Source: Flavobacterium sp. (GTDB lineage Bacteria > Bacteroidota > Bacteroidia > Flavobacteriales > Flavobacteriaceae). Taken from it: a stretch of DNA of 64,000 nt. The translations under genes and the position numbers were made by a program. This document shows, in pieces, positions 15,386 to 22,696 of the stretch; position 1 is the first letter of the stretch; every line of letters starts with the position of its first letter. The stretch is taken from contig NZ_JBIIVK010000007.1 in NCBI RefSeq assembly GCF_044339515.1, forward strand, positions 6,776 through 70,775, given 5' to 3'. Under the pieces are notes generated by a model, which searched no databases, was not told the origin of the DNA, and was given only the letters and a program-made list of their open reading frames with translations.

Positions 15386-15394
15386 ATTATTTTT

Positions 15395-15448
15395 GTTCAA
15401 GTTTCAGGTTTCAAGTTTTTTGGCAACCTGAAACTTGAAACCTGAAAC
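15395..15448. repeat. Inverted heptamer arrays forming a hairpin
   Basis: GTTCAA GTTTCAG GTTTCAA ... AACCTG AAACTTG AAACCTG AAAC. Confidence 0.8.
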
Positions 15449-15456
15449 AAAAAACT

Positions 15457-15789
15457 ATGTCCCAAGACATCACCATTAAAATCACCGACCGAAAAGGAGT
15501 AAAACACGAAGTGCAAGCTCCAACCGACATGAACATGAACATCATGGAACTCATTCGTGCTTATGAACTAGCTGAAGAAGGAACCGTTGGTGTGTGTGGT
15601 GGCATGGCCATGTGTGCATCTTGTCAATGTTATGTTTTGAATGACGTAATTTCGCTAGAACGAAATCCGGATGAAGAAGCAATGCTTTGGGAAGCCTATC
15701 ATGTGAAAGAAAATTCCCGTTTAGGCTGTCAAATTCCAATTACTCCTGAAATGGATGGATTGGAAATTGAGATTGCTCCTGAGCAATAA
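15457..15789 (+). CDS. fdx: 2Fe-2S ferredoxin (adrenodoxin type)
   Basis: CGGMAMCASC...SRLGCQ. Confidence 0.93.
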   Translation: MSQDITIKITDRKGVKHEVQAPTDMNMNIMELIRAYELAEEGTVGVCGGMAMCASCQCYVLNDVISLERNPDEEAMLWEAYHVKENSRLGCQIPITPEMDGLEIEIAPEQ

Positions 15790-15870
15790 AGCATAAATTA
15801 TCGCTTTTTATTCTTCGTTGTAACATTTCTGCAAGTCATTACGTATAAGAATTATGTTTACTTTTATTGA

Positions 15871-16233
15871 ATGGAAAAACAACACAATCTGTTAGGACTA
15901 CACAAATTATTAACACTAAAAGTTTCAAAAGAAACATTATTAACTGATTTAGATAGTTTTGTTCACTTCACAGATCATCTACTCTTCCATTACAAATTAG
16001 AAAAAGTCGGAAATACAACATTTGTTTTTGAAAATGAAAGTTTTACAATTGCTTATTGTTTAAAAGAATCACATATTTGTATCCATACTTGGCCTGAAAT
16101 TAAAACCGTAACGATGGACATATATTTGTGCAATTATTCGCAAGATAATTCTAATAAAGTAAGAAGTATTTCAAACGACTTTATTACTTATTTTGGTGGA
16201 AAAATTATTAAACAAGTAGAAGTAGAGCGATAA
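15871..16233 (+). CDS. speD: Pyruvoyl-dependent S-adenosylmethionine decarboxylase family proenzyme
   Basis: LKESHICIHTWPE self-cleavage motif and DIYLC. Substrate not proven; some SpeD homologues decarboxylate Arg or Orn. Confidence 0.85.
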   Translation: MEKQHNLLGLHKLLTLKVSKETLLTDLDSFVHFTDHLLFHYKLEKVGNTTFVFENESFTIAYCLKESHICIHTWPEIKTVTMDIYLCNYSQDNSNKVRSISNDFITYFGGKIIKQVEVER

Positions 16234-16235
16234 GT

Positions 16236-17456
16236 ATGGAGTTTACTTGCACGAAATGTAATAATCATACAAAAATTGATACTGCGATTGAAGTAAAAAA
16301 CTTCGGTTGTCCTAACTGTGGTAGTTTATTTGATTTTGATGAAAAAGGTTTTAGATTTTCAAAAAAGTTTGACTACAATCCAATTACTAATCTTTTAAAA
16401 ATTGGGGCAAAAGGAGTAATTGACAATGAAACGTACGAAATAGTTGGTCTAGTTATCAAAAGAGTTCATTCAATCTATTATTGGCGAGAATATACGTTAA
16501 TGACTACATCGGGTAAGGTAAAATACCTTTCAGAATCAGATGGTCATTGGATTTTATTGGAAGAAGTTCCAGAGTCCTATGATGTTTCTCGCAAGTATAA
16601 AAAGTTAACGCACAAAGAGATTACTTATCATCTCTATGAACATACCAATTCTTCAATTGTTCGTGTTCATGGGTTTTATGAATTTGAAATACCAAACAAA
16701 CAGTTTAAAATTATTGAATACATTAATCCGCCATATGTAATTTCTATTGAGCAAATAAAAGATAATGAAACAACAACTTTTGGGAGACATATTACATCCA
16801 AGGAAATAAAAAAGATTTTCAATAGCAATGAAATGCCACAAAAATCTGGAGTAGGCTTGGTTCAACCTTTTTTATTCAATATTTACAATACAATTATAAT
16901 ATTTATTTCGTTTGCGATTTTAATCTTAACAACATTCATTATTTTTAATTTGTCAAGAACTGAACAAAATGTTCTAAACGTTTCGATTAACTTTGATGAA
17001 TATAAAAGTAAAGAATATATTTCACCATCGTTTGAATTAAAAGGAAGTCCAGCTCCATTAATAATTTCTGCTAATACAAGCGTTGATAATTCATGGGCAA
17101 ATGCACAAGTGTCGTTGGTAAATGAGTCAAACAATGAAGAAGAATATGCTCAAAAAGATATCGAATATTATCATGGCTACTCAGAAGGAGAGAGATGGTC
17201 AGAAGGAAGCAAGCGTACGACATTTAATTTCTGCGGAGTAGCTAAAGGGAAATATCATTTGGTAATCGTTCCCTCCAAACAAGAAACAGATTTTTACAAT
17301 CAGAACATGACTATTAATGCTGTTTGGAATGAATCTTCGGTTTGGAATTTTATGTTTAGTTTGGTTTCTTTAGCCATAATTTTTATACTTATTTTCTTTT
17401 TAAAGAAAAATTTTGAACAGCGAAGATGGGAAAACAGTGATTTTACACCTTATTAA
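16236..17456 (+). CDS. DUF4178-type protein with N-terminal Zn ribbon and two TM helices
   Basis: CTKC...CPNC; IGAKGVID..YEIVG...WREY...LSESDGHW; EDGKT-free C-terminal TM ending RRWENSDF; typical context next to DUF350 and spermidine synthase genes. Confidence 0.75.
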   Translation: MEFTCTKCNNHTKIDTAIEVKNFGCPNCGSLFDFDEKGFRFSKKFDYNPITNLLKIGAKGVIDNETYEIVGLVIKRVHSIYYWREYTLMTTSGKVKYLSESDGHWILLEEVPESYDVSRKYKKLTHKEITYHLYEHTNSSIVRVHGFYEFEIPNKQFKIIEYINPPYVISIEQIKDNETTTFGRHITSKEIKKIFNSNEMPQKSGVGLVQPFLFNIYNTIIIFISFAILILTTFIIFNLSRTEQNVLNVSINFDEYKSKEYISPSFELKGSPAPLIISANTSVDNSWANAQVSLVNESNNEEEYAQKDIEYYHGYSEGERWSEGSKRTTFNFCGVAKGKYHLVIVPSKQETDFYNQNMTINAVWNESSVWNFMFSLVSLAIIFILIFFLKKNFEQRRWENSDFTPY

Positions 17457-17463
17457 TAACAAC

Positions 17464-17640
17464 ATGAAACAGTATCTTTTAAATAATAAATGGGCCTTTG
17501 TATTAGCATTATTGGTTTATAGTCTATTTTTGGTATATTCATTTACAGGCAGTAGAATTTGCGATTGCGAATCTACTGAAAAATATAATTCAGGAAGTTC
17601 AAGAGGTCACAACACAGTTAATCGTTTTTATCACAAATAA
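17464..17640 (+). CDS. 58-aa single-pass membrane microprotein
   Basis: ATG at 17464 after the upstream stop (the track's TTG extension overlaps that gene); TM segment, CDC, Gly/Ser-rich tail ending FYHK. Confidence 0.7.
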   Translation: MKQYLLNNKWAFVLALLVYSLFLVYSFTGSRICDCESTEKYNSGSSRGHNTVNRFYHK

Positions 17641-17647
17641 GAAATAT

Positions 17648-17863
17648 ATGGAATTTATTGCATTAAAAGGCATAGTAAATGCACTTATTTTTTCAGTTAT
17701 AGGAGTTGTTGTTTTAATAATCAGTTATTACATAATTGAAAAAATAACTCCCGAAAACACGTGGAAAGAAATTGTTCAAAACAAAAATGTCGCTCTAGCA
17801 GTTGTTTTTGCTGCATTGATTATTGGTATTTCGCTCATTATCAGTGCCGCCATTCATGGGTAA
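17648..17863 (+). CDS. DUF350 (YjfL-like) two-TM membrane protein
   Basis: EKITPENTWKEIVQNKNVALAV...IISAAIHG pattern. Confidence 0.85.
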   Translation: MEFIALKGIVNALIFSVIGVVVLIISYYIIEKITPENTWKEIVQNKNVALAVVFAALIIGISLIISAAIHG

Positions 17864-19370
17864 GATTTTTAAGTTCGAATATCTTCTTCTTTTTGCAGTA
17901 TTCATTATTGCAACATGTGGTCTTGTTTACGAATTAGTAGCAGGAACTTTAGCAAGTTATTTACTTGGGGATTCTGTTAAACAATTCTCATTTATTATAG
18001 GCGTGTATCTTTTCTCTATGGGGATAGGTTCCTATTTTGCAAAGTTTATTAAAAAGAACCAACTCAATACATTTATTGAGATAGAGATTATTGTTGGTGT
18101 CATTGGAGGGTTAAGTTCTGTAATTTTATTTCTATTGTTTGAAAAAGTGGCTTATTTTCAGTTTATATTATATTTTTTAGTATTCATTACAGGTTGTTTA
18201 GTTGGTTTAGAGATACCATTATTAATGAATATTCTAAAGGATAAAGTAAAATTCAGCGATTTAGTTTCTAATGTTTTCACTTTTGACTACATCGGTGCTT
18301 TGCTTGCTTCTGTACTTTTTCCGCTAGTATTTATCCCCCAACTTGGTATTATAAGAACTTCTTTGTTTTTCGGGATGATCAATTTGAGTGTAGCTATTGC
18401 ACTTTGTTTTATTTTACATAAAGAAATTAAAAGAGTTTATTTTCTTAAAACGAAAGCCATAATTTCGTTTTTAATTTTAGCCTTAGTTTTTGTTTTCTCT
18501 GAAAAAATACTTTCTTTTTCTGAGGAGAAATTATATGGTGAAAATATTATTTTTTCCAAAACCACCGCCTACCAAAGAATTGTTTTAACCCATATAAAAA
18601 ACGATTACAAACTTTATTTAAACAACAATTTACAATTTAGTTCTGCCGATGAATATCGTTATCACGAGGCTTTGGTTCACCCGGCAATGTCATCTGCAAA
18701 ATCTGTTACGAAAGTATTGGTTTTAGGTGGGGGTGATGGTTTGGCAGCTAGAGAGATTCTAAAATATAAAGATGTAAAAGATATAACACTTGTGGATTTA
18801 GATGGTGGTATGACAACATTATTTCGTACCAATTCCGTGTTAACTTCCTTGAACAACAAAGCATTACTAAACGAGAAAGTGAGAGTATTCAATGAGGATG
18901 CATTTCTTTGGATTAAACAAGCGAAAAAGAAATATGATGTAGTAATTATCGATTTTCCTGATCCTTCCAATTATAGTTTAGGCAAATTATATTCGGTTAA
19001 TTTTTATCTATCTCTTCAAAAAGTTTTAGCACCTGGAGCAGTGGTAGCCATTCAAACAACATCACCTTTCTTTGCTCCAAAATCATTTTGGTGTATAAAT
19101 AAAACCGTTAAAACCGTTTTTTCCAAAACAGATCCTTATCATGTTTATGTTCCGTCTTTTGGAGAATGGGGTTTTACGATTACATCAAATAATCCAACCT
19201 ATAATGTTGATTTAATTCATAGAAAAGTAAATAATTTACGTTTTTATAATTATAAGTTCAAGAGTCTTAACCAATTTGCAGATGACATGAGGGCTAATAA
19301 TGTGGAGGTAAACAGATTGGATAACCAAATTTTAGTGCGATATTTTGATGAAGAGTGGGGAAAATTATAA
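17856..19370 (+). CDS. speE: Polyamine aminopropyltransferase (spermidine-synthase family) fused to an N-terminal multi-TM domain
   Basis: About seven TM segments, then YQRI, LYLNNNLQFSSADEYRYHEAL, LGGGDG, VDLD, DFPDP. ATG at 17856 overlaps the DUF350 stop. Confidence 0.9.
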   Translation: MGKIFKFEYLLLFAVFIIATCGLVYELVAGTLASYLLGDSVKQFSFIIGVYLFSMGIGSYFAKFIKKNQLNTFIEIEIIVGVIGGLSSVILFLLFEKVAYFQFILYFLVFITGCLVGLEIPLLMNILKDKVKFSDLVSNVFTFDYIGALLASVLFPLVFIPQLGIIRTSLFFGMINLSVAIALCFILHKEIKRVYFLKTKAIISFLILALVFVFSEKILSFSEEKLYGENIIFSKTTAYQRIVLTHIKNDYKLYLNNNLQFSSADEYRYHEALVHPAMSSAKSVTKVLVLGGGDGLAAREILKYKDVKDITLVDLDGGMTTLFRTNSVLTSLNNKALLNEKVRVFNEDAFLWIKQAKKKYDVVIIDFPDPSNYSLGKLYSVNFYLSLQKVLAPGAVVAIQTTSPFFAPKSFWCINKTVKTVFSKTDPYHVYVPSFGEWGFTITSNNPTYNVDLIHRKVNNLRFYNYKFKSLNQFADDMRANNVEVNRLDNQILVRYFDEEWGKL

Positions 19371-20976
19371 TTCACGCAGAAGATTTATACAAAAATTAGC
19401 CGCTTTTTCTGTGATGGCAGCTGTTCCCCATTTTTTGTTTTCGTGTAAAGAAAAATTGTCAGGTTTTATTTTGAAGGCAACCGGCACCAATCATATACTT
19501 GGACATAGACTATGGTTAAAAAATTTCCCACCTCCTTCAAGAATAGTACAAATGCCTTATTTAATTATAGGAGGTGGAATTACAGGACTTTCAGCTTCAA
19601 GGCAACTCAAAAAAAATGGGATTGACGATTTTTATGTTTTGGAGATTGAAAGTAATGTTGGTGGCAACTCAAGCAATGGAGCAAATAACTATTCAAAGTT
19701 TCCACTTGCAGCTCATTATCTGCCCTTGCCAAATATTCGGGATAAAGAATTGTTAGCTTTTCTTGAAGAATCTAAAATAATCATTAGTTACAACAAAGGT
19801 ATGCCAATCTTCGATGAGCAACAACTTTGTTTTGACCCAAACGAACGTTTGTTCATTAGGAATACATGGCAAAGTGATCTAATTCCTAAGTATGGAAATT
19901 CTTCAGAATCAGATCGTCAAATTGATTTGTTTTTTCAATTGATAAGTGCATATAGGAGTAAAAAAGGAACTGATGGAAAGTATTTTTTTGACATTCCGCT
20001 TCATTTTTGTTCTAAGGATTCCGATTTAGATGATTTAGATAACAAAACAATGAAAACTTGGCTTAATGAAAATAATTTTGATGCAGATGAATTGTTGTTG
20101 TATGTAGATTATTGTTGCAAAGATGATTTTGGACTGGGAATTGAATTCGTTTCTGCTTGGGCAGGAATTCATTATTTTGCTGCGAGAAAGCATGAAAATA
20201 CGATGTATAATGATACTGTTCTCACATGGCCAGAAGGTAATGGAAGATTAGTTGAACATTTGAAATACTATGCTAAAAATAATGTGTTATCTAACACTTT
20301 AGTTTATGAAATTAAGATTGAAAACAATACTGTTAAAGTATTGGCTTATAATGCAGAAACGAATGAATCGATACATTTTATAGCGGAAAGGGTTATAGTT
20401 TGTACACCACAATTTATTAATAAATATTTATTTCAGGAAAGAAAAAAAATCTATGAAGGTTTTCACTATGCTCCATGGTTTTCCGCTACTGTCACTCTAT
20501 TAGAAATACCAGATAATGATAGCTTTCCATTGTCATGGGACAATGTTATTTTGAAGGGGAAAGGGCTTGGCTATGTTTATAATCAACACCAACATTTAGA
20601 ACAAGTAATAGATAGGAAAGTGATTACTTATTACTACAGTTTTAGCTCAGATGATTTAGCAAACGATAGAAAACAATTATTAAAAAAACCCGTTTCATAT
20701 TGGAAGGAATTGATGATTGCCGATTTAAAAATTGCTCATCCAGATATAGAAGAATTTATAATTGATATCGAAATTCATAAAATCGGACATGGAATGATTA
20801 GTCCTGTGCCCGGTTTTTTGAAGGGTCAATATTTATATGAAGCGTCTGAGTGTATAGAAAATAAAATCTATTTTGCTCACAGTGATTTATCAGGCATTTC
20901 GATTTTTGAAGAGGCTTTTCACCAAGGAATTAATGTCGTAAACAAAATAATTAATGACGCAACCTTGGATACATAA
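19348..20976 (+). CDS. FAD-dependent oxidoreductase (flavin amine-oxidase-like), predicted Tat-exported lipoprotein
   Basis: SRRRFIQK twin-arginine motif, LFSC lipobox, IGGGITG Rossmann motif, C-terminal SGISIFEEAFHQG. Confidence 0.85.
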   Translation: MKSGENYNSRRRFIQKLAAFSVMAAVPHFLFSCKEKLSGFILKATGTNHILGHRLWLKNFPPPSRIVQMPYLIIGGGITGLSASRQLKKNGIDDFYVLEIESNVGGNSSNGANNYSKFPLAAHYLPLPNIRDKELLAFLEESKIIISYNKGMPIFDEQQLCFDPNERLFIRNTWQSDLIPKYGNSSESDRQIDLFFQLISAYRSKKGTDGKYFFDIPLHFCSKDSDLDDLDNKTMKTWLNENNFDADELLLYVDYCCKDDFGLGIEFVSAWAGIHYFAARKHENTMYNDTVLTWPEGNGRLVEHLKYYAKNNVLSNTLVYEIKIENNTVKVLAYNAETNESIHFIAERVIVCTPQFINKYLFQERKKIYEGFHYAPWFSATVTLLEIPDNDSFPLSWDNVILKGKGLGYVYNQHQHLEQVIDRKVITYYYSFSSDDLANDRKQLLKKPVSYWKELMIADLKIAHPDIEEFIIDIEIHKIGHGMISPVPGFLKGQYLYEASECIENKIYFAHSDLSGISIFEEAFHQGINVVNKIINDATLDT

Positions 20977-21967
20977 ACCTAAAACAGATTTTCTGTTTAT
21001 CCTTTTTCCTTCATTTTTTGTGCTTGGAATTATTTTTATTTTTCAGAATTGGTTAGTGAAAATTCAAGAAGATTTTTCTTTTTATACATGGTTGTTTTTA
21101 ATTGTATTTATTGATGTAGCACATGTATATTCAACACTTTTTAAAACCTATTTTGTAAAAAGTGAATTTCAAAGAAGAAGGAAATTATATATCGGTTTAC
21201 CAATTATTTGTTTTTTGATTGGCTTGGTTTTATTTAGTTTTGGCAGTAAATTATTTTGGTCTGTTTTAGCATATGTTGCTGTTTTTCATTTTATTAGACA
21301 GCAATATGGATTTGTTAGATTGTATTCCAGAAAAGAAGAGAAGACAAAAGCAAATAGGTATTCAGATGCGTTAATTATTTATACGGCAACTTTATACCCC
21401 ATGCTTTATTGGTTTTTTTCTTCACCAAGAGCTTTTAATTGGTTTGTTGAAAAGGAATTTATTCAAGTTGAAAATGTTTTGTTAACGCAAATTGCAAGCG
21501 TGTTTTATGTATTAATAATAACCTATTACATATCTCGAACTACAGCAATATACCTGAAGACAAATTATTTTAATATTCCAAAAAACTTAATTATTCTTGG
21601 CACACTCTTGTCATGGTATTTCGGAATTGTATTTTTTAATAATGATTTAGTATTTACGCTCTTAAACGTTGTTTCGCATGGCATTCCGTATATGGCTTTA
21701 ATTTATCTAAAAGAGATTGATTTAAGGCCCAAAGAAGAGATGGGAGTATTATTTCATTTTAAAAGTGCTAAAGGTTTATTTTTATTCGTCTTATTAATTT
21801 TAGGGATTGCTTTCGCCGAAGAATATTTATGGGAAATATTGGTTTGGCAAGAAAATTTCGAATCGAATTTCGATACTTTTAAATTACAATTTGTATTAGT
21901 TCCATTACTGACTGTTCCTCAATTTACGCACTACTTGCTGGATGGTTTTATTTGGAAATCTAAATAA
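20954..21967 (+). CDS. Uncharacterised multi-TM protein with four His-containing motifs
   Basis: DVAHVYSTL, FHFIRQQYG, SHGIPY, THYLLDGFIW. Confidence 0.8.
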   Translation: MTQPWIHKPKTDFLFILFPSFFVLGIIFIFQNWLVKIQEDFSFYTWLFLIVFIDVAHVYSTLFKTYFVKSEFQRRRKLYIGLPIICFLIGLVLFSFGSKLFWSVLAYVAVFHFIRQQYGFVRLYSRKEEKTKANRYSDALIIYTATLYPMLYWFFSSPRAFNWFVEKEFIQVENVLLTQIASVFYVLIITYYISRTTAIYLKTNYFNIPKNLIILGTLLSWYFGIVFFNNDLVFTLLNVVSHGIPYMALIYLKEIDLRPKEEMGVLFHFKSAKGLFLFVLLILGIAFAEEYLWEILVWQENFESNFDTFKLQFVLVPLLTVPQFTHYLLDGFIWKSK

Positions 21968-21982
21968 TTATTGATTTTTTTC

Positions 21983-22696
21983 TTAAATTCCAAGTTTAGC
22001 TCTCGCAACCGGAAGGAGTCGCTCCACAAATTTAGAGTAGGCCAATTCAGATGGATGTAAATTATCCGAAGCAACCAATTGCGGATTATTCAATCCATCT
22101 CGTGTAATGTCTGTAATGTTCACAAATTTAATTTCTAGCGATTCTGCATGATTTTTAGCAAATAAATTATATTGATCGAGTTGATTAGAAATAGTTTCCG
22201 GGTTTGAACTTCCCTGACCAAAAGGCGTAAAAGCATAATCCGGGATAGAAACCACAATAACACGATTTTTATCTCCTTTTGCCAAGGTGATTGCGGTTTG
22301 CAACAACTCAGGAAACTCGGTTTCGTATAATGAAAAAGGTCTGTTTTGATATTGATTGTTAACACCAATTAATAACGTAACCAAATCGTATTGAGCTTGC
22401 AAATTTTCATTTGTGATAGCGTTTTTTAGGTTAGTAGTTGTCCAACCGGTTTGGGCCACCACTTTCACAAAAATATTATCAGAAGAAGGTAAATAATTTT
22501 TCAGACTATCTTTCAATTGTTCCGGGAATCGACATGTCTCGCATACGTTTTGTCCAATTGTATAACTATCGCCCAAAGCTAAATAGTTGAAATTCCTACT
22601 GGTTGGTTCGGTAATGATTGGTGGTGTTTCATCTGTGGTTGAGCAACCGATTAATGGTGTAATCACCATGATCAAAAGGAAAATCAATTTTCTCAT
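21983..22696 (-). CDS. SGNH/GDSL hydrolase lipoprotein
   Basis: LIGC lipobox, LGDSYT, GVNN, DNLHP. Confidence 0.92.
   Translation of the reverse strand: MRKLIFLLIMVITPLIGCSTTDETPPIITEPTSRNFNYLALGDSYTIGQNVCETCRFPEQLKDSLKNYLPSSDNIFVKVVAQTGWTTTNLKNAITNENLQAQYDLVTLLIGVNNQYQNRPFSLYETEFPELLQTAITLAKGDKNRVIVVSIPDYAFTPFGQGSSNPETISNQLDQYNLFAKNHAESLEIKFVNITDITRDGLNNPQLVASDNLHPSELAYSKFVERLLPVARAKLGI

Follow-up and report, generated by a model that had tools for sequence, protein, structure and literature searches.

The seven genes located at positions 15871-21967 of the window (the whole stretch of 64,000 nucleotides of Flavobacterium sp. DNA that was analysed) very probably constitute the Bacteroidota seven-gene version of a widespread membrane aminopropyl-transfer module, defined by a dedicated SAM decarboxylase, a membrane-fused spermidine-synthase-like enzyme, a DUF350 protein and a DUF4178 protein. 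This identity can be held with high confidence on the basis of family scores, synteny and a published core. As for the function, the explanation that we tentatively prefer is that an aminopropyl group might be transferred to a tethered terminal lysine outside the cytoplasm, a step followed by flavin oxidation. If this is true, the output of the operon would be a switchable charge, or a cross-link, on the periplasmic side of the inner membrane, and not a soluble polyamine pool.

The core of the operon is already published (Ravi et al. 2024, PMC11237479; Li et al. 2019), its function being unassigned there; because of this, the novelty is lower than implied by the earlier note on this DNA, which treated the system as essentially unknown. 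The present analysis adds the invariant His-Lys end of the g3 microprotein, the g2-g3 fusions, the Gly-Lys lipoprotein tails, the charge-based prediction of a periplasmic placement and the model of g7.

Organization and distribution of the operon

All seven ORFs were found on the same strand exactly where the earlier note had placed them, in the order g1 to g7 (Table 1), and the tight coupling that it described was confirmed by reading the junction sequences directly, each junction being either an overlap or a gap of at most 7 nt. The stop of g1 and the start of g2 are separated by 2 nt, the g2-g3 and g3-g4 gaps are of 7 nt each, and the remaining genes overlap by 8 nt (g4/g5, sequence ATGGGTAA), 23-26 nt (g5/g6) and 23 nt (g6/g7). 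The flanking genes are also those claimed, namely fdx and an SGNH gene, the Fer2 score of the former lying under its cut-off. A GC check showed that the AT-richness perceived by eye is real though modest (30.3% in the operon vs 34.0% in the genome), and it places the operon in the lowest 4.8% of the 6.1-kb windows of the genome. The intergenic region upstream of g1 gave no match in Rfam, and sigma-70-type sites around it were not above the shuffled frequency in a scan that does not extend to Bacteroidota promoters.

Table 1. Coordinates of the operon genes and of the adjoining features in the window.
Feature	Coordinates	Strand	Family or remark
fdx, 5' flank	15457-15789		Fer2, 18.1 bits (under the 21-bit cut-off)
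Upstream intergenic region, presumed g1 promoter region	15790..15870	+	81 nt
g1, class 1b pyruvoyl S-adenosylmethionine decarboxylase homologue (SpeD-like), 120 aa, cytoplasmic	15871..16233	+	PF02675
g2, zinc-ribbon + DUF4178 protein	16236..17456	+	PF13785
g3, 58-aa single-pass microprotein	17464..17640	+	ORF with TM segment, just upstream of g4
g4, DUF350 (YjfL family) two-helix membrane protein, 71 aa	17648..17863	+	PF03994
g5, seven-helix membrane domain + spermidine-synthase-like aminopropyltransferase domain	17856..19370	+	NF002956
g6, Tat-exported lipoprotein, flavin amine-oxidase-like, 543 aa	19345..20976	+	PF01593
g7, polytopic membrane protein (about 10 TM), 337 aa, unnamed family	20954..21967	+	
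SGNH gene, 3' flank	21983-22696	minus	

The gene order could have proved unconserved in other genomes, a case that the earlier note had set against its own reading; instead, about 70 of the 80 Bacteroidota loci keep it, with different flanks, and this objection therefore falls. The syntenic loci span Flavobacteriales, Chitinophagales, Sphingobacteriales and Cytophagales, with protein identities of 26-90%, and since the same order recurs throughout, the arrangement of the seven genes is far beyond chance. The DUF350 gene is located directly 5' of the SpeE gene in 74/80 loci. The operon is patchily distributed: among the genomes sampled, 3 of 12 from the genus and 13 of 301 from the phylum harbor it.

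Elsewhere, the genome (99.98% complete) contains a SpeA-like arginine decarboxylase gene, a deoxyhypusine-synthase-like (homospermidine) gene and an agmatinase-like gene; its sole SpeD (g1 is the only AdoMet_dc homologue) and its sole true SpeE lie in the operon, and no PspA is present anywhere in it. These observations support the view that the operon is an accessory module, the bulk polyamine synthesis being performed elsewhere; together with the patchy distribution, they agree with the earlier claim that bulk spermidine synthesis is not its role.

The encoded proteins and their predicted topology

The domain assignments previously made for g1, g2, g4, g5 and g6 were upheld, all of them scoring above the family cut-offs. 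In g1 (AdoMet_dc, 60.4 bits, cut-off 25), S63, H68 and C83 of the T. maritima enzyme, residues named in PMC10407285, have their aligned counterparts in the Glu66-Ser67 self-cleavage site, His72 and Cys87. The g2 protein (DUF4178, 42.7 bits, cut-off 25) appears, on the basis of TM segments and flank charges, to be composed of a cytoplasmic zinc-ribbon and DUF4178 part, a TM helix, a periplasmic domain of ~130 aa, a second TM helix and a short basic tail; the zinc ribbon has four invariant Cys (C5, C8, C25 and C28), and the periplasmic domain a conserved acidic/aromatic motif of the EYYHGYE.GE.WSEG type.

The g3 microprotein carries a tail of ~30 residues rich in Ser, Thr, Gly, Arg and Tyr, whose final two residues are His-Lys. 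A TM-bearing ORF of this type, with His-Lys at its end, occurs in 77 of the 77 loci where such an ORF is readable, whereas the other tail residues differ from locus to locus; moreover, g2 is naturally fused with the His-Lys tail protein in three loci (L078, L092 and L096), and the terminal His-Lys is kept in all three fusions. The charges flanking the TM segment (net +0.92 on the N-terminal and -1.08 on the C-terminal side, over 75 distinct sequences) predict an N-in, C-out orientation, with the tail in the periplasm. The g4 product is a DUF350 protein scoring 52.6 bits (cut-off 26).

The g5 protein is 504 aa long from its ATG (an alternative TTG start exists at 17823) and scores 647.8 bits as a membrane polyamine aminopropyltransferase (cut-off 472). 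Its GGGDG and D-x-x-D-P motifs are intact, both Asp of the latter being kept in the acceptor pocket; in soluble SpeE enzymes this Asp pair suits a free diamine. With the Ser, His and Cys of SpeD and the SpeE motifs intact, both g1 and g5 are likely to be catalytically competent. The AF2 model (pLDDT 89.2) consists of helices up to residue 213, followed by a SpeE fold, and E26, E77, E119 and D144 are invariant within the membrane helices. The predicted inner segments (the N-terminal stretch and loops 2, 4 and 6) contain 1.3-3.0 Lys+Arg each and the three predicted outer loops 0.1-0.5; because of these loop charges (positive-inside rule) and of the seven helices, the N-terminus of g5 is predicted to be inside and its catalytic domain periplasmic. 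This topology depends on the positive-inside rule. Residues 133-186 form a single continuous helix in the AF2 model, and if this helix represented one membrane crossing, the side would be inverted and the catalytic domain would therefore be cytoplasmic.

The g6 protein (Amino_oxidase, 29.5 bits, cut-off 19.8; NAD_binding_8, 34.8 bits) possesses a twin-arginine motif and a lipobox Cys, with R11, F14 and C34 invariant in 7/7 aligned orthologues. Among proteins of solved structure, it is closest to flavin amine, polyamine and L-amino-acid oxidases, with LSD1, PAO and Fms1 among the relatives; the match covers the FAD-binding region only. The g7 protein has no Pfam or NCBIfam family match; its homologues form 1103 representative clusters at E<=1e-3. 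Its earlier description as His-rich overstated the composition, but four His are invariant, the full set of invariant residues being D54, H57, H112, Q116, D231, N238, H242, E289, H326 and D330; the invariant His, Asp and Glu sit inside helices of a confident AF2 model (pLDDT 93.2, pTM 0.90). A search of the PDB with this fold gave a best match of E 0.73 and TM 0.18, and a search with the sequence gave no match.

A terminal lysine as candidate acceptor and the competing readings

In the mechanism that we prefer, g1 would make decarboxylated SAM in the cytoplasm, and the acidic-lined seven-helix domain of g5 would pass this dicationic molecule to a periplasm-facing SpeE-like domain, which might aminopropylate an acceptor that is not free putrescine. 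In g3, the invariant C-terminal Lys would offer the likeliest acceptor, its epsilon-amine, giving a tethered polyamine-like side chain, i.e., a shorter analogue of deoxyhypusine. The exported oxidase g6 and the His/Asp-rich membrane protein g7 could then oxidise, remodel or erase this modification, and the DUF4178 (g2) and DUF350 (g4) proteins might act as a scaffold or sensor.

The specific lysine-acceptor mechanism, drawn from conservation and predicted topology, is possible yet rather doubtful. The terminal Lys of g3 is a candidate protein acceptor for the chemistry of the operon, as suggested by the constancy of the His-Lys end where other tail residues vary and by its retention in the fusions. 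PspA-type operons, which also occur in Bacteroidota (L018, L020 and L022), point to the same candidate: these variants of the module carry a bona fide lipoprotein with a Ser/Arg/Gly-rich tail like that of g3, ending Gly-Lys in 4/4 loci.

Some observations run against the lysine acceptor. The PspA-type tails end in Gly-Lys rather than His-Lys, and that of the variant L019 in Gly-Gly; the D-x-x-D-P Asp pair is kept in g5; and the C-terminal Lys may serve another role, such as a cell-wall cross-link. Moreover, we know of no precedent for the crossing of a membrane by decarboxylated SAM, which a periplasmic SpeE domain would require.

The earlier note had proposed either aminopropylation of an envelope acceptor (lipid or protein) or a surface polyamine cycle. 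The non-bulk role and the gene order are borne out, and a protein acceptor now has a concrete candidate, but the surface cycle, although unlikely, is a live rival. According to it, the substrate of g5 would be a free amine, such as homospermidine, putrescine, agmatine or cadaverine, aminopropylated at the membrane; the seven-helix domain of g5 would export the product and g6 would degrade or recycle it, the Lys-ended g3 tail and the acidic/aromatic g2 domain in the periplasm doing no more than bind or sense polyamine. The retained acceptor-site motif, as in diamine-using SpeE enzymes, the acidic residues of the g5 membrane helices, which fit cation transport, and the grouping of g6 with polyamine and amine oxidases all agree with it; the arginine decarboxylase, agmatinase and homospermidine genes located elsewhere in the genome could supply the precursors, and a physiological precedent exists in the surface spermidine of P. 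aeruginosa PA4773-4775 (cited in PMC11107197). The cycle leaves unexplained, however, a tethered g3 with an invariant His-Lys in every locus and the g2 fusions, and a predicted periplasmic catalytic domain fits export poorly. The reported absence of spermidine in hosts of similar clusters, and the reported lack of E. coli speE complementation, also speak against it.

It is improbable that the terminal Lys of g3 is instead a cross-linking residue serving as a tether of the cell wall or envelope, with aminopropyl transferase and oxidase regulating, extending or cleaving the link. It is known that the C-terminal Lys of Braun's lipoprotein (Lpp) is cross-linked to peptidoglycan, and the YHK end of g3 presumably resembles the Lpp C-terminus. 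A membrane-anchored, predicted periplasmic tail ending aromatic-basic-Lys would suit this role, as would the lipoprotein nature of the g3 counterpart in the PspA-type variants, which connect the module with envelope stress (PMC11237479). On the other hand, an L,D-transpeptidase gene was not found in the operon, and the model itself does not require SpeD or SpeE.

Aminopropylation of a lipid head group (phosphatidylethanolamine or an ornithine/serine aminolipid), altering surface charge and with g7 as a lipid-modifying enzyme, is more improbable still: a membrane-embedded g5 and a polytopic g7 with invariant intrahelical His, Asp and Glu would be compatible with it, but all seven proteins lack a lipid-enzyme family signature in Pfam and NCBIfam, the invariant His-Lys peptide is unaccounted for, and PspA-type variants without g7 still keep the Lys-ended tail. 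The idea that SpeD and SpeE simply make spermidine in the cytosol, next to functionally unrelated neighbours, is already disfavoured and extremely improbable. In its favour, g1 and g5 are the genome's only SpeD/SpeE homologues and have intact catalytic motifs; against it, several orders share the seven-gene order with its overlapping frames, at 26-90% identity, 9 of the 12 genus genomes sampled lack the operon, and a separate homospermidine-type pathway is present.

Comparison with known systems

Li, Kurihara, Kim, Liang and Michael (2019, Biochem J 476:2579; ref. 89 of PMC11237479) reportedly described gene clusters composed of AdoMetDC, a fusion of a membrane protein with a SpdSyn-like domain, and DUF350; their SpeDs are said to be active, spermidine is said to be lacking, and the fusion reportedly could not take the place of E. 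coli SpeE. The conclusion attributed to that work is that the aminopropyl acceptor of the fusion is not putrescine, its identity being left open. The window operon shares with these clusters a dedicated class 1b SpeD beside a membrane-fused SpeE-like protein and DUF350, and the proposal of an acceptor other than putrescine is also common to both. To our knowledge, neither the His-Lys microprotein nor the g7 family nor a predicted periplasmic orientation is described in that work.

With Lpp, g3 would share the character of a membrane-anchored periplasmic polypeptide with a (putatively) functional Lys at the C-terminus, after aromatic and basic residues; it differs in having no sequence relationship with Lpp, in being TM-anchored in the inner membrane and in lacking a linked transpeptidase gene.

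Ravi et al. (2024, mSystems, PMC11237479, section 19) describe a PspA-associated operon of six to seven genes, encoding CesT/Tir-like, PspA, 7TM-spermidine-synthase-like, YjfL/DUF350, Ctha_1186 lipoprotein and DUF4178 proteins. The 7TM-SpeE-like protein, DUF350 and DUF4178 are common to both operons, whereas that of the window is without PspA, the CesT-like gene and that lipoprotein, adds SpeD, the microprotein, the Tat flavin oxidase and g7, and has a short two-helix DUF350 and a Zn-ribbon/two-TM DUF4178.

In P. aeruginosa, PA4773-PA4775 (speD2/speE2) are responsible for PmrAB-induced surface spermidine (Johnson et al. 2012, J Bacteriol 194:813, as cited in PMC11107197). What the two systems have in common is that the SpeD/SpeE pair is accessory and works for the envelope, not for the bulk polyamine pool. 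The SpeE of that system is soluble and makes free spermidine, and we know of no DUF4178, DUF350, oxidase or tail peptide belonging to it.

Finally, the proposed chemistry would work like the formation of deoxyhypusine/hypusine in eIF5A, where the epsilon-amine of one specific Lys receives an alkylamine derived from a polyamine, and g6 might act like LSD1, PAO and Fms1, amine-oxidase-fold flavoenzymes that oxidise secondary amines on Lys or polyamines. In eIF5A hypusination, the donor is spermidine (aminobutyl) and the enzyme deoxyhypusine synthase; here, the donor would be decarboxylated SAM (aminopropyl), the enzyme SpeE-like and the predicted site extracytoplasmic.

Organization and distribution of the operon

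The interval of the operon is entirely occupied by seven open reading frames lying on the same strand, which encode a SpeD-like protein (g1), a zinc-ribbon/DUF4178 protein (g2), a 58-amino acid microprotein (g3), a DUF350 protein (g4), a SpeE fused to seven transmembrane helices (g5), a Tat-exported lipoprotein flavin amine oxidase (g6) and a membrane protein (g7). The tight packing described in the earlier note was confirmed by reading the junctions directly: the spacings are 2 nt (g1-g2), 7 nt (g2-g3) and 7 nt (g3-g4), followed by overlaps of 8 nt (ATGGGTAA; g4/g5), 23-26 nt (g5/g6) and 23 nt (g6/g7). The domain calls made at that stage (AdoMet_dc, DUF4178, DUF350, membrane SpeE and flavin oxidase) were likewise matched by Pfam and NCBIfam, and the AT-richness noticed by eye was found to be real, albeit modest in size, the GC content being 30.3% in the operon against 34.0% in the genome (bottom 4.8% of 6.1-kb windows). 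Terminator-like sites within the operon are not commoner than in shuffled sequences, and the promoter scan, which covered sigma-70-type sites, performed no better than shuffles. No riboswitch or leader RNA of Rfam was found in the 81-nt leader upstream of g1. The sole result of the Rfam scan was a near-perfect palindrome of about 60 nt located outside the operon, in the interval that separates fdx (the gene just upstream of the operon) from the 350-aa gene preceding it; its matches to microRNA families are sub-threshold (best 39.1 bits, gathering score 60), and it is probably a terminator or a REP-like hairpin. A role in anti-phage defence was discarded, the only PADLOC match being one of a generic methyltransferase-fold kind between mad2 and the catalytic domain of g5, with the other six proteins unmatched.

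The distribution of SpeE proteins of the NF002956 type is patchy, as they occur in 13/301 sampled Bacteroidota genomes and in 3/12 genomes of the genus. Five of these loci harbor the same seven genes in the same order (27-74% identity), their flanks not being conserved except for an SGNH homologue located downstream in one of them. Other Bacteroidota SpeE loci (35-39% identity) belong to the variant in which the membrane SpeE is linked to PspA; as an example, loci L020 and L022 contain genes for a CesT-like protein, PspA, a short DUF4178 protein, a lipoprotein, an eight-helix DUF350 protein and a 7TM-SpeE, and their layout has relatives in L018, L023 and L019. When named genomes were searched with the g7 alignment as the seed, 80 loci were retrieved, spanning Flavobacterium, Chryseobacterium, Epilithonimonas, Chitinophaga, Pedobacter, Mucilaginibacter, Solitalea, Fibrisoma and others, the nearest ones (80-81% identity) being those of F. 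celericrescens and F. cheniae. The relative order g1-g2-(g3)-g4-g5-g6-g7 is maintained in about 70 of the 80, the exceptions being mostly short contigs; the gene order, on whose conservation in other genomes the earlier interpretation had been made to depend, is thus conserved. In one genome of the same genus (G203), fdx directly adjoins a gene related to the 677-aa one that lies downstream; since synteny is lost in the other four genomes checked, a clean empty site for the operon is not demonstrable.

Location of the operon and of related features (G, sampled genomes, G000 being the source genome; L, homologous loci in other genomes)
Feature	Location	Strand	Remark
Seven-gene operon	window 15871-21967	+	
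Palindrome	window 15393-15453		
SpeA-like short arginine decarboxylase, then deoxyhypusine-synthase-like protein	G000:C89:7280-9750		outside the window
SpeE-like methyltransferase-fold protein	G000:C89, ~62.1-62.8 kb		221 aa
Brp/Blh beta-carotene dioxygenase	G000:C99:6028-6798		outside the window; 136.9 bits
Distant g7-like paralogue	G232:C3:721592-722443		
Distant g7-like paralogue	G003:C1:1136273-1136767		
Lone g7 homologue	L094:8911-10020		Vitreoscilla massiliensis; 48% identity
g2-g3 fusion	L078:4304-5698		
g2-g3 fusion	L092:4231-5682		
g2-g3 fusion	L096:4250-5686		
Gly-Lys lipoprotein (Ctha_1186 type)	L018:10604-11347	-	
Gly-Lys lipoprotein (Ctha_1186 type)	L020:10861-11610	-	
Gly-Lys lipoprotein (Ctha_1186 type)	L022:6199-6921	+	
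Gly-Lys lipoprotein (Ctha_1186 type)	L023:7219-7983	+	
Divergent variant with SpeD and glutathionylspermidine-synthetase-like ORF	L019:5807-7926	-	

Polyamine enzymes and associated proteins

The only AdoMet_dc homologue and the only real SpeE of the assembly (3.38 Mb, 99.98% complete) are those of the operon. A homospermidine-type bulk pathway is typical of flavobacteria, and elsewhere in the genome a SpeA-like protein is directly followed by one resembling deoxyhypusine synthase, for which "homospermidine biosynthesis protein" is the best model; judging from sequence, this pair is the probable bulk polyamine pathway. An agmatinase-like protein is also encoded (170.3 bits, cut-off 174.3). All three proteins are under strict cut-offs, yet taken together they fit a homospermidine-type pathway. 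Given this separate gene set, the operon represents an accessory system instead of the polyamine supply of the cell, in agreement with the earlier view that it does not serve bulk spermidine synthesis. The contig carrying the SpeA-like gene also encodes a small SpeE-like protein with a methyltransferase fold.

The g1 protein passes the threshold of PF02675 (AdoMet_dc; 60.4 bits, cut-off 25) and falls under that of the equivalog TIGR03330 (53.6 bits, cut-off 75.65), hence its assignment as a divergent class 1b pyruvoyl AdoMet decarboxylase. Its Glu-Ser self-cleavage site (E66-S67), H72 and C87 align to S63, H68 and C83 of the Thermotoga maritima enzyme (1TLU/1VR7). The obligate SpeE-like partner gene and the separate SpeA-like gene suggest that g1 would act on AdoMet rather than on Arg or Orn. 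In 16 orthologues (L013, L014, L093, L097-L105 and L107-L110) from Sphingobacteriales, Chitinophagales and Cytophagales, the catalytic Cys87 is replaced by Ser, a substitution that may entail an altered chemistry or a slower self-processing; in 10 of them, position 15 is acidic (Glu in 8, Asp in 2) in place of Thr.

The g5 protein matches NF002956 (PRK03612) over residues 19-514 with 647.8 bits (cut-off 472), and its SpeE domain, which can be aligned to 7XIF, 6BQ2 and 1IY9, retains the GGGDG and D-x-x-D-P motifs: among 27 sequences, G291-G293, G295, D366 and D369 show no variation, and D294, the Asp of GGGDG, is present in at least 90%. Four acidic residues of the membrane helices (E26, E77, E119 and D144) are also invariant, a pattern suited to a cationic ligand. 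In the AF2 model (pLDDT 89.2), helices (3-37, 40-64, 69-94, 101-127, 133-186 and 194-213) extend until residue 213 and are followed by a beta-hairpin and a Rossmann fold. The mean Lys+Arg number over the same 27 sequences is 2.4 at the N-terminus and 0.5, 1.3, 0.1, 3.0, 0.2 and 3.0 in loops 1 to 6, respectively; from this pattern and from the seven hydrophobic helices, we infer a topology with the N-terminus inside and the catalytic domain outside. This prediction carries the caveat that residues 133-186, spanning two hydrophobic segments, are modelled as a single unbroken helix, even though the strongly positive charge of both loops 4 and 6 favours the membrane being crossed twice between them.

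The g6 oxidase passes the cut-off of PF01593 (Amino_oxidase; 29.5 bits, cut-off 19.8). The glycines of its dinucleotide-binding GxGxxG motif (G76, G78 and G81) are invariant, as are, in the seven sequences aligned, the Arg/Phe of the twin-arginine motif and the lipobox Cys. Its profile matches PAO, Fms1, LAAO, MAO and LSD1 in the PDB over the FAD-binding region only (approximately residues 66-128).

The last gene, g7 (337 aa), matches no Pfam or NCBIfam family, even at E<=10, and represents an uncharacterised family comprising about 1100 sequence clusters (1103 representative ones at E<=1e-3), for which a confident model with about ten TM helices (pLDDT 93.2, pTM 0.90) is obtained without a solved relative: no Foldseek match was found in the PDB (best E 0.73, TM 0.18), and the profile gave zero matches to PDB sequences. 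Its invariant residues, which include D54, H57, H112, Q116, D231, N238, H242, E289, H326 and D330, point to a membrane enzyme that would bind a metal or heme. The name "beta-carotene monooxygenase" attached to g7 relatives in databases is unsupported, since the Brp/Blh family (PF15461) is not matched at E<=10 and the alignment with seven true Blh proteins (hhalign) has a probability of 0.25%. A true Blh is encoded elsewhere in the genome, which suggests that retinal is produced and that a rhodopsin may be present. Strong g7 orthologues are restricted to the six sampled Bacteroidota genomes with the seven-gene variant; weak paralogues, unlinked to SpeE, occur in 23 other Bacteroidota genomes from other families of the phylum, these distant proteins (70-91 bits) being encoded by ORFs of 390-450 aa, and the family is rare in Pseudomonadota (3/301). 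One protein of the representative search (P0161, 1278 aa) is a fusion between a g7-family domain (residues 16-355) and an entire M1 aminopeptidase (Peptidase_M1_N, M1 and ERAP1_C), which either hints that the family is connected with peptide processing or is an artefact of gene calling. The homologue of V. massiliensis, in which the genome search showed a single in-frame TGA, lies apart from the membrane SpeE of that genome, near genes that look by eye like polyamine-catabolism genes of the glutamine-synthetase and aminotransferase types.

The Lys-terminated tail and the possible acceptors

In g2, whose profile had only weak matches in the PDB, all to zinc ribbons, a four-Cys zinc ribbon precedes the DUF4178 domain (42.7 bits); both are predicted to be cytoplasmic and to be followed by a TM helix, a periplasmic domain of about 130 aa that has an acidic/aromatic motif, another TM helix and a basic cytoplasmic tail. 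The g4 protein matches DUF350 with 52.6 bits. No Pfam or NCBIfam family was found for g3 even at E<=10. A TM-bearing ORF just upstream of g4 ends in His-Lys, usually as (F/Y)-Y-H-K, in all of the 77 loci that have it (77/77), a count to be read knowing that the ORF picker favoured HK-ended candidates; even so, a random ORF has a chance of about 1 in 400 of such an end. The remainder of the tail, of about 30 residues and rich in Ser, Thr, Gly, Arg and Tyr, is freely variable. The mean net charge of the flanks (75 distinct sequences) is +0.92 on the N-terminal and -1.08 on the C-terminal side, and the tail is therefore predicted to lie outside, with the N-terminus inside. Three loci contain natural fusions in which the microprotein is appended C-terminally to the DUF4178 protein with its His-Lys end kept; these fusions lack the acidic/aromatic motif of the g2 periplasmic domain, which is deleted.

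The lipoprotein of the PspA-type variant bears a clear lipobox, from which it follows that it is exported, and its Ser/Arg/Gly-rich tail ends in (F)-G-K, the Gly-Lys end being present in all four loci examined. Within this sample of four, it parallels the His-Lys end of g3, so that a membrane-tethered Lys-terminated tail is common to both variants. In the divergent variant L019, a single-pass protein of 197 aa has a Ser/Arg/Gly-rich tail that terminates with Gly-Gly, not Lys; its gene, speD and the synthetase-like ORF (judged by eye from its N-terminus) are all oriented divergently with respect to the membrane SpeE.

The SpeE domain, the Lys tail, the loop domain of g2 and the flavoprotein are thus the predicted periplasmic players, and the best-supported proposal is that the cytoplasmic SpeD makes decarboxylated SAM, with which g5, at the membrane, would modify an acceptor different from free putrescine, the strongest candidate being the tethered terminal Lys, while the exported oxidase and g7 would then process the product. 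In its full form, this proposal is an extracytoplasmic protein aminopropylation: the acidic seven-helix domain of g5 would pass decarboxylated SAM to the periplasm-facing SpeE-like domain, the terminal Lys of the tail (carried by the microprotein here and by the lipoprotein in PspA-type loci) would become N6-aminopropyl-lysine, i.e., a tethered polyamine, and the flavin amine oxidase together with a metal-binding g7 would read, oxidise or erase the mark. We regard this full form as tentative and rather unlikely. The main rival of the best-supported proposal is a surface cycle of small-molecule polyamines, which the diamine-type Asp pair retained in g5 favours. A cell-wall tether resembling Lpp and a lipid acceptor rank lower, and so does plain spermidine synthesis. 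Li and colleagues are said to have reported in 2019 that clustered SpeDs are active, that their hosts lack spermidine and that the SpeE fusion fails to complement an E. coli speE deletion, which reportedly suggests that the fusion does not make spermidine from putrescine. The analysis establishes the gene content, its conservation, the intact motifs, the export signals and the accessory status of the operon; the sidedness of g5, the acceptor and all chemistry downstream of SpeD are a matter of inference. The earlier interpretation is thus supported in part.

Comparison with the PspA-linked operon

Membrane-fused SpeE-like enzymes with a private SAM decarboxylase occur in thousands of bacterial genomes, including those of mycobacteria, and what they aminopropylate has been a published question since 2019. 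The Bacteroidota operon gathers several clues, namely a tethered peptide with an invariant terminal Lys, sometimes fused to its DUF4178 partner, the same tail on the PspA-linked lipoprotein, a predicted periplasmic catalytic domain and an exported amine oxidase, which make the acceptor question a mass-spectrometry experiment in a group that is non-pathogenic as well as genetically tractable. Lys aminopropylation, if true, would constitute a bacterial post-translational modification of a new type, and decarboxylated SAM would acquire a new role outside the cytoplasm.

In the published description of the PspA-linked operon (Ravi et al. 2024, PMC11237479), its genes encode a 7TM-spermidine-synthase-like protein, YjfL/DUF350, the Ctha_1186 lipoprotein and DUF4178, and variants with AdoMet decarboxylase and polyamine oxidase are also mentioned; the role proposed there, with reference to Li et al. 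2019, is polyamine monitoring "or aminopropylation of other substrates". According to a 2024 paper, there are no experimental data on these operons, and no newer work was found in full-text literature searches. The seven-gene operon is a variant of this published module, with concrete testable clues. It resembles the PSP-associated 7TM-SpeE operon (Ravi et al. 2024) in the joint presence of a 7TM-SpeE-like protein, DUF350 and DUF4178, and differs from it in that PspA is missing, with no PF04012 match in the 99.98% complete genome, and in that the Ctha_1186-type lipoprotein, absent from the window, is replaced by the 58-aa microprotein, both being Lys-ended.
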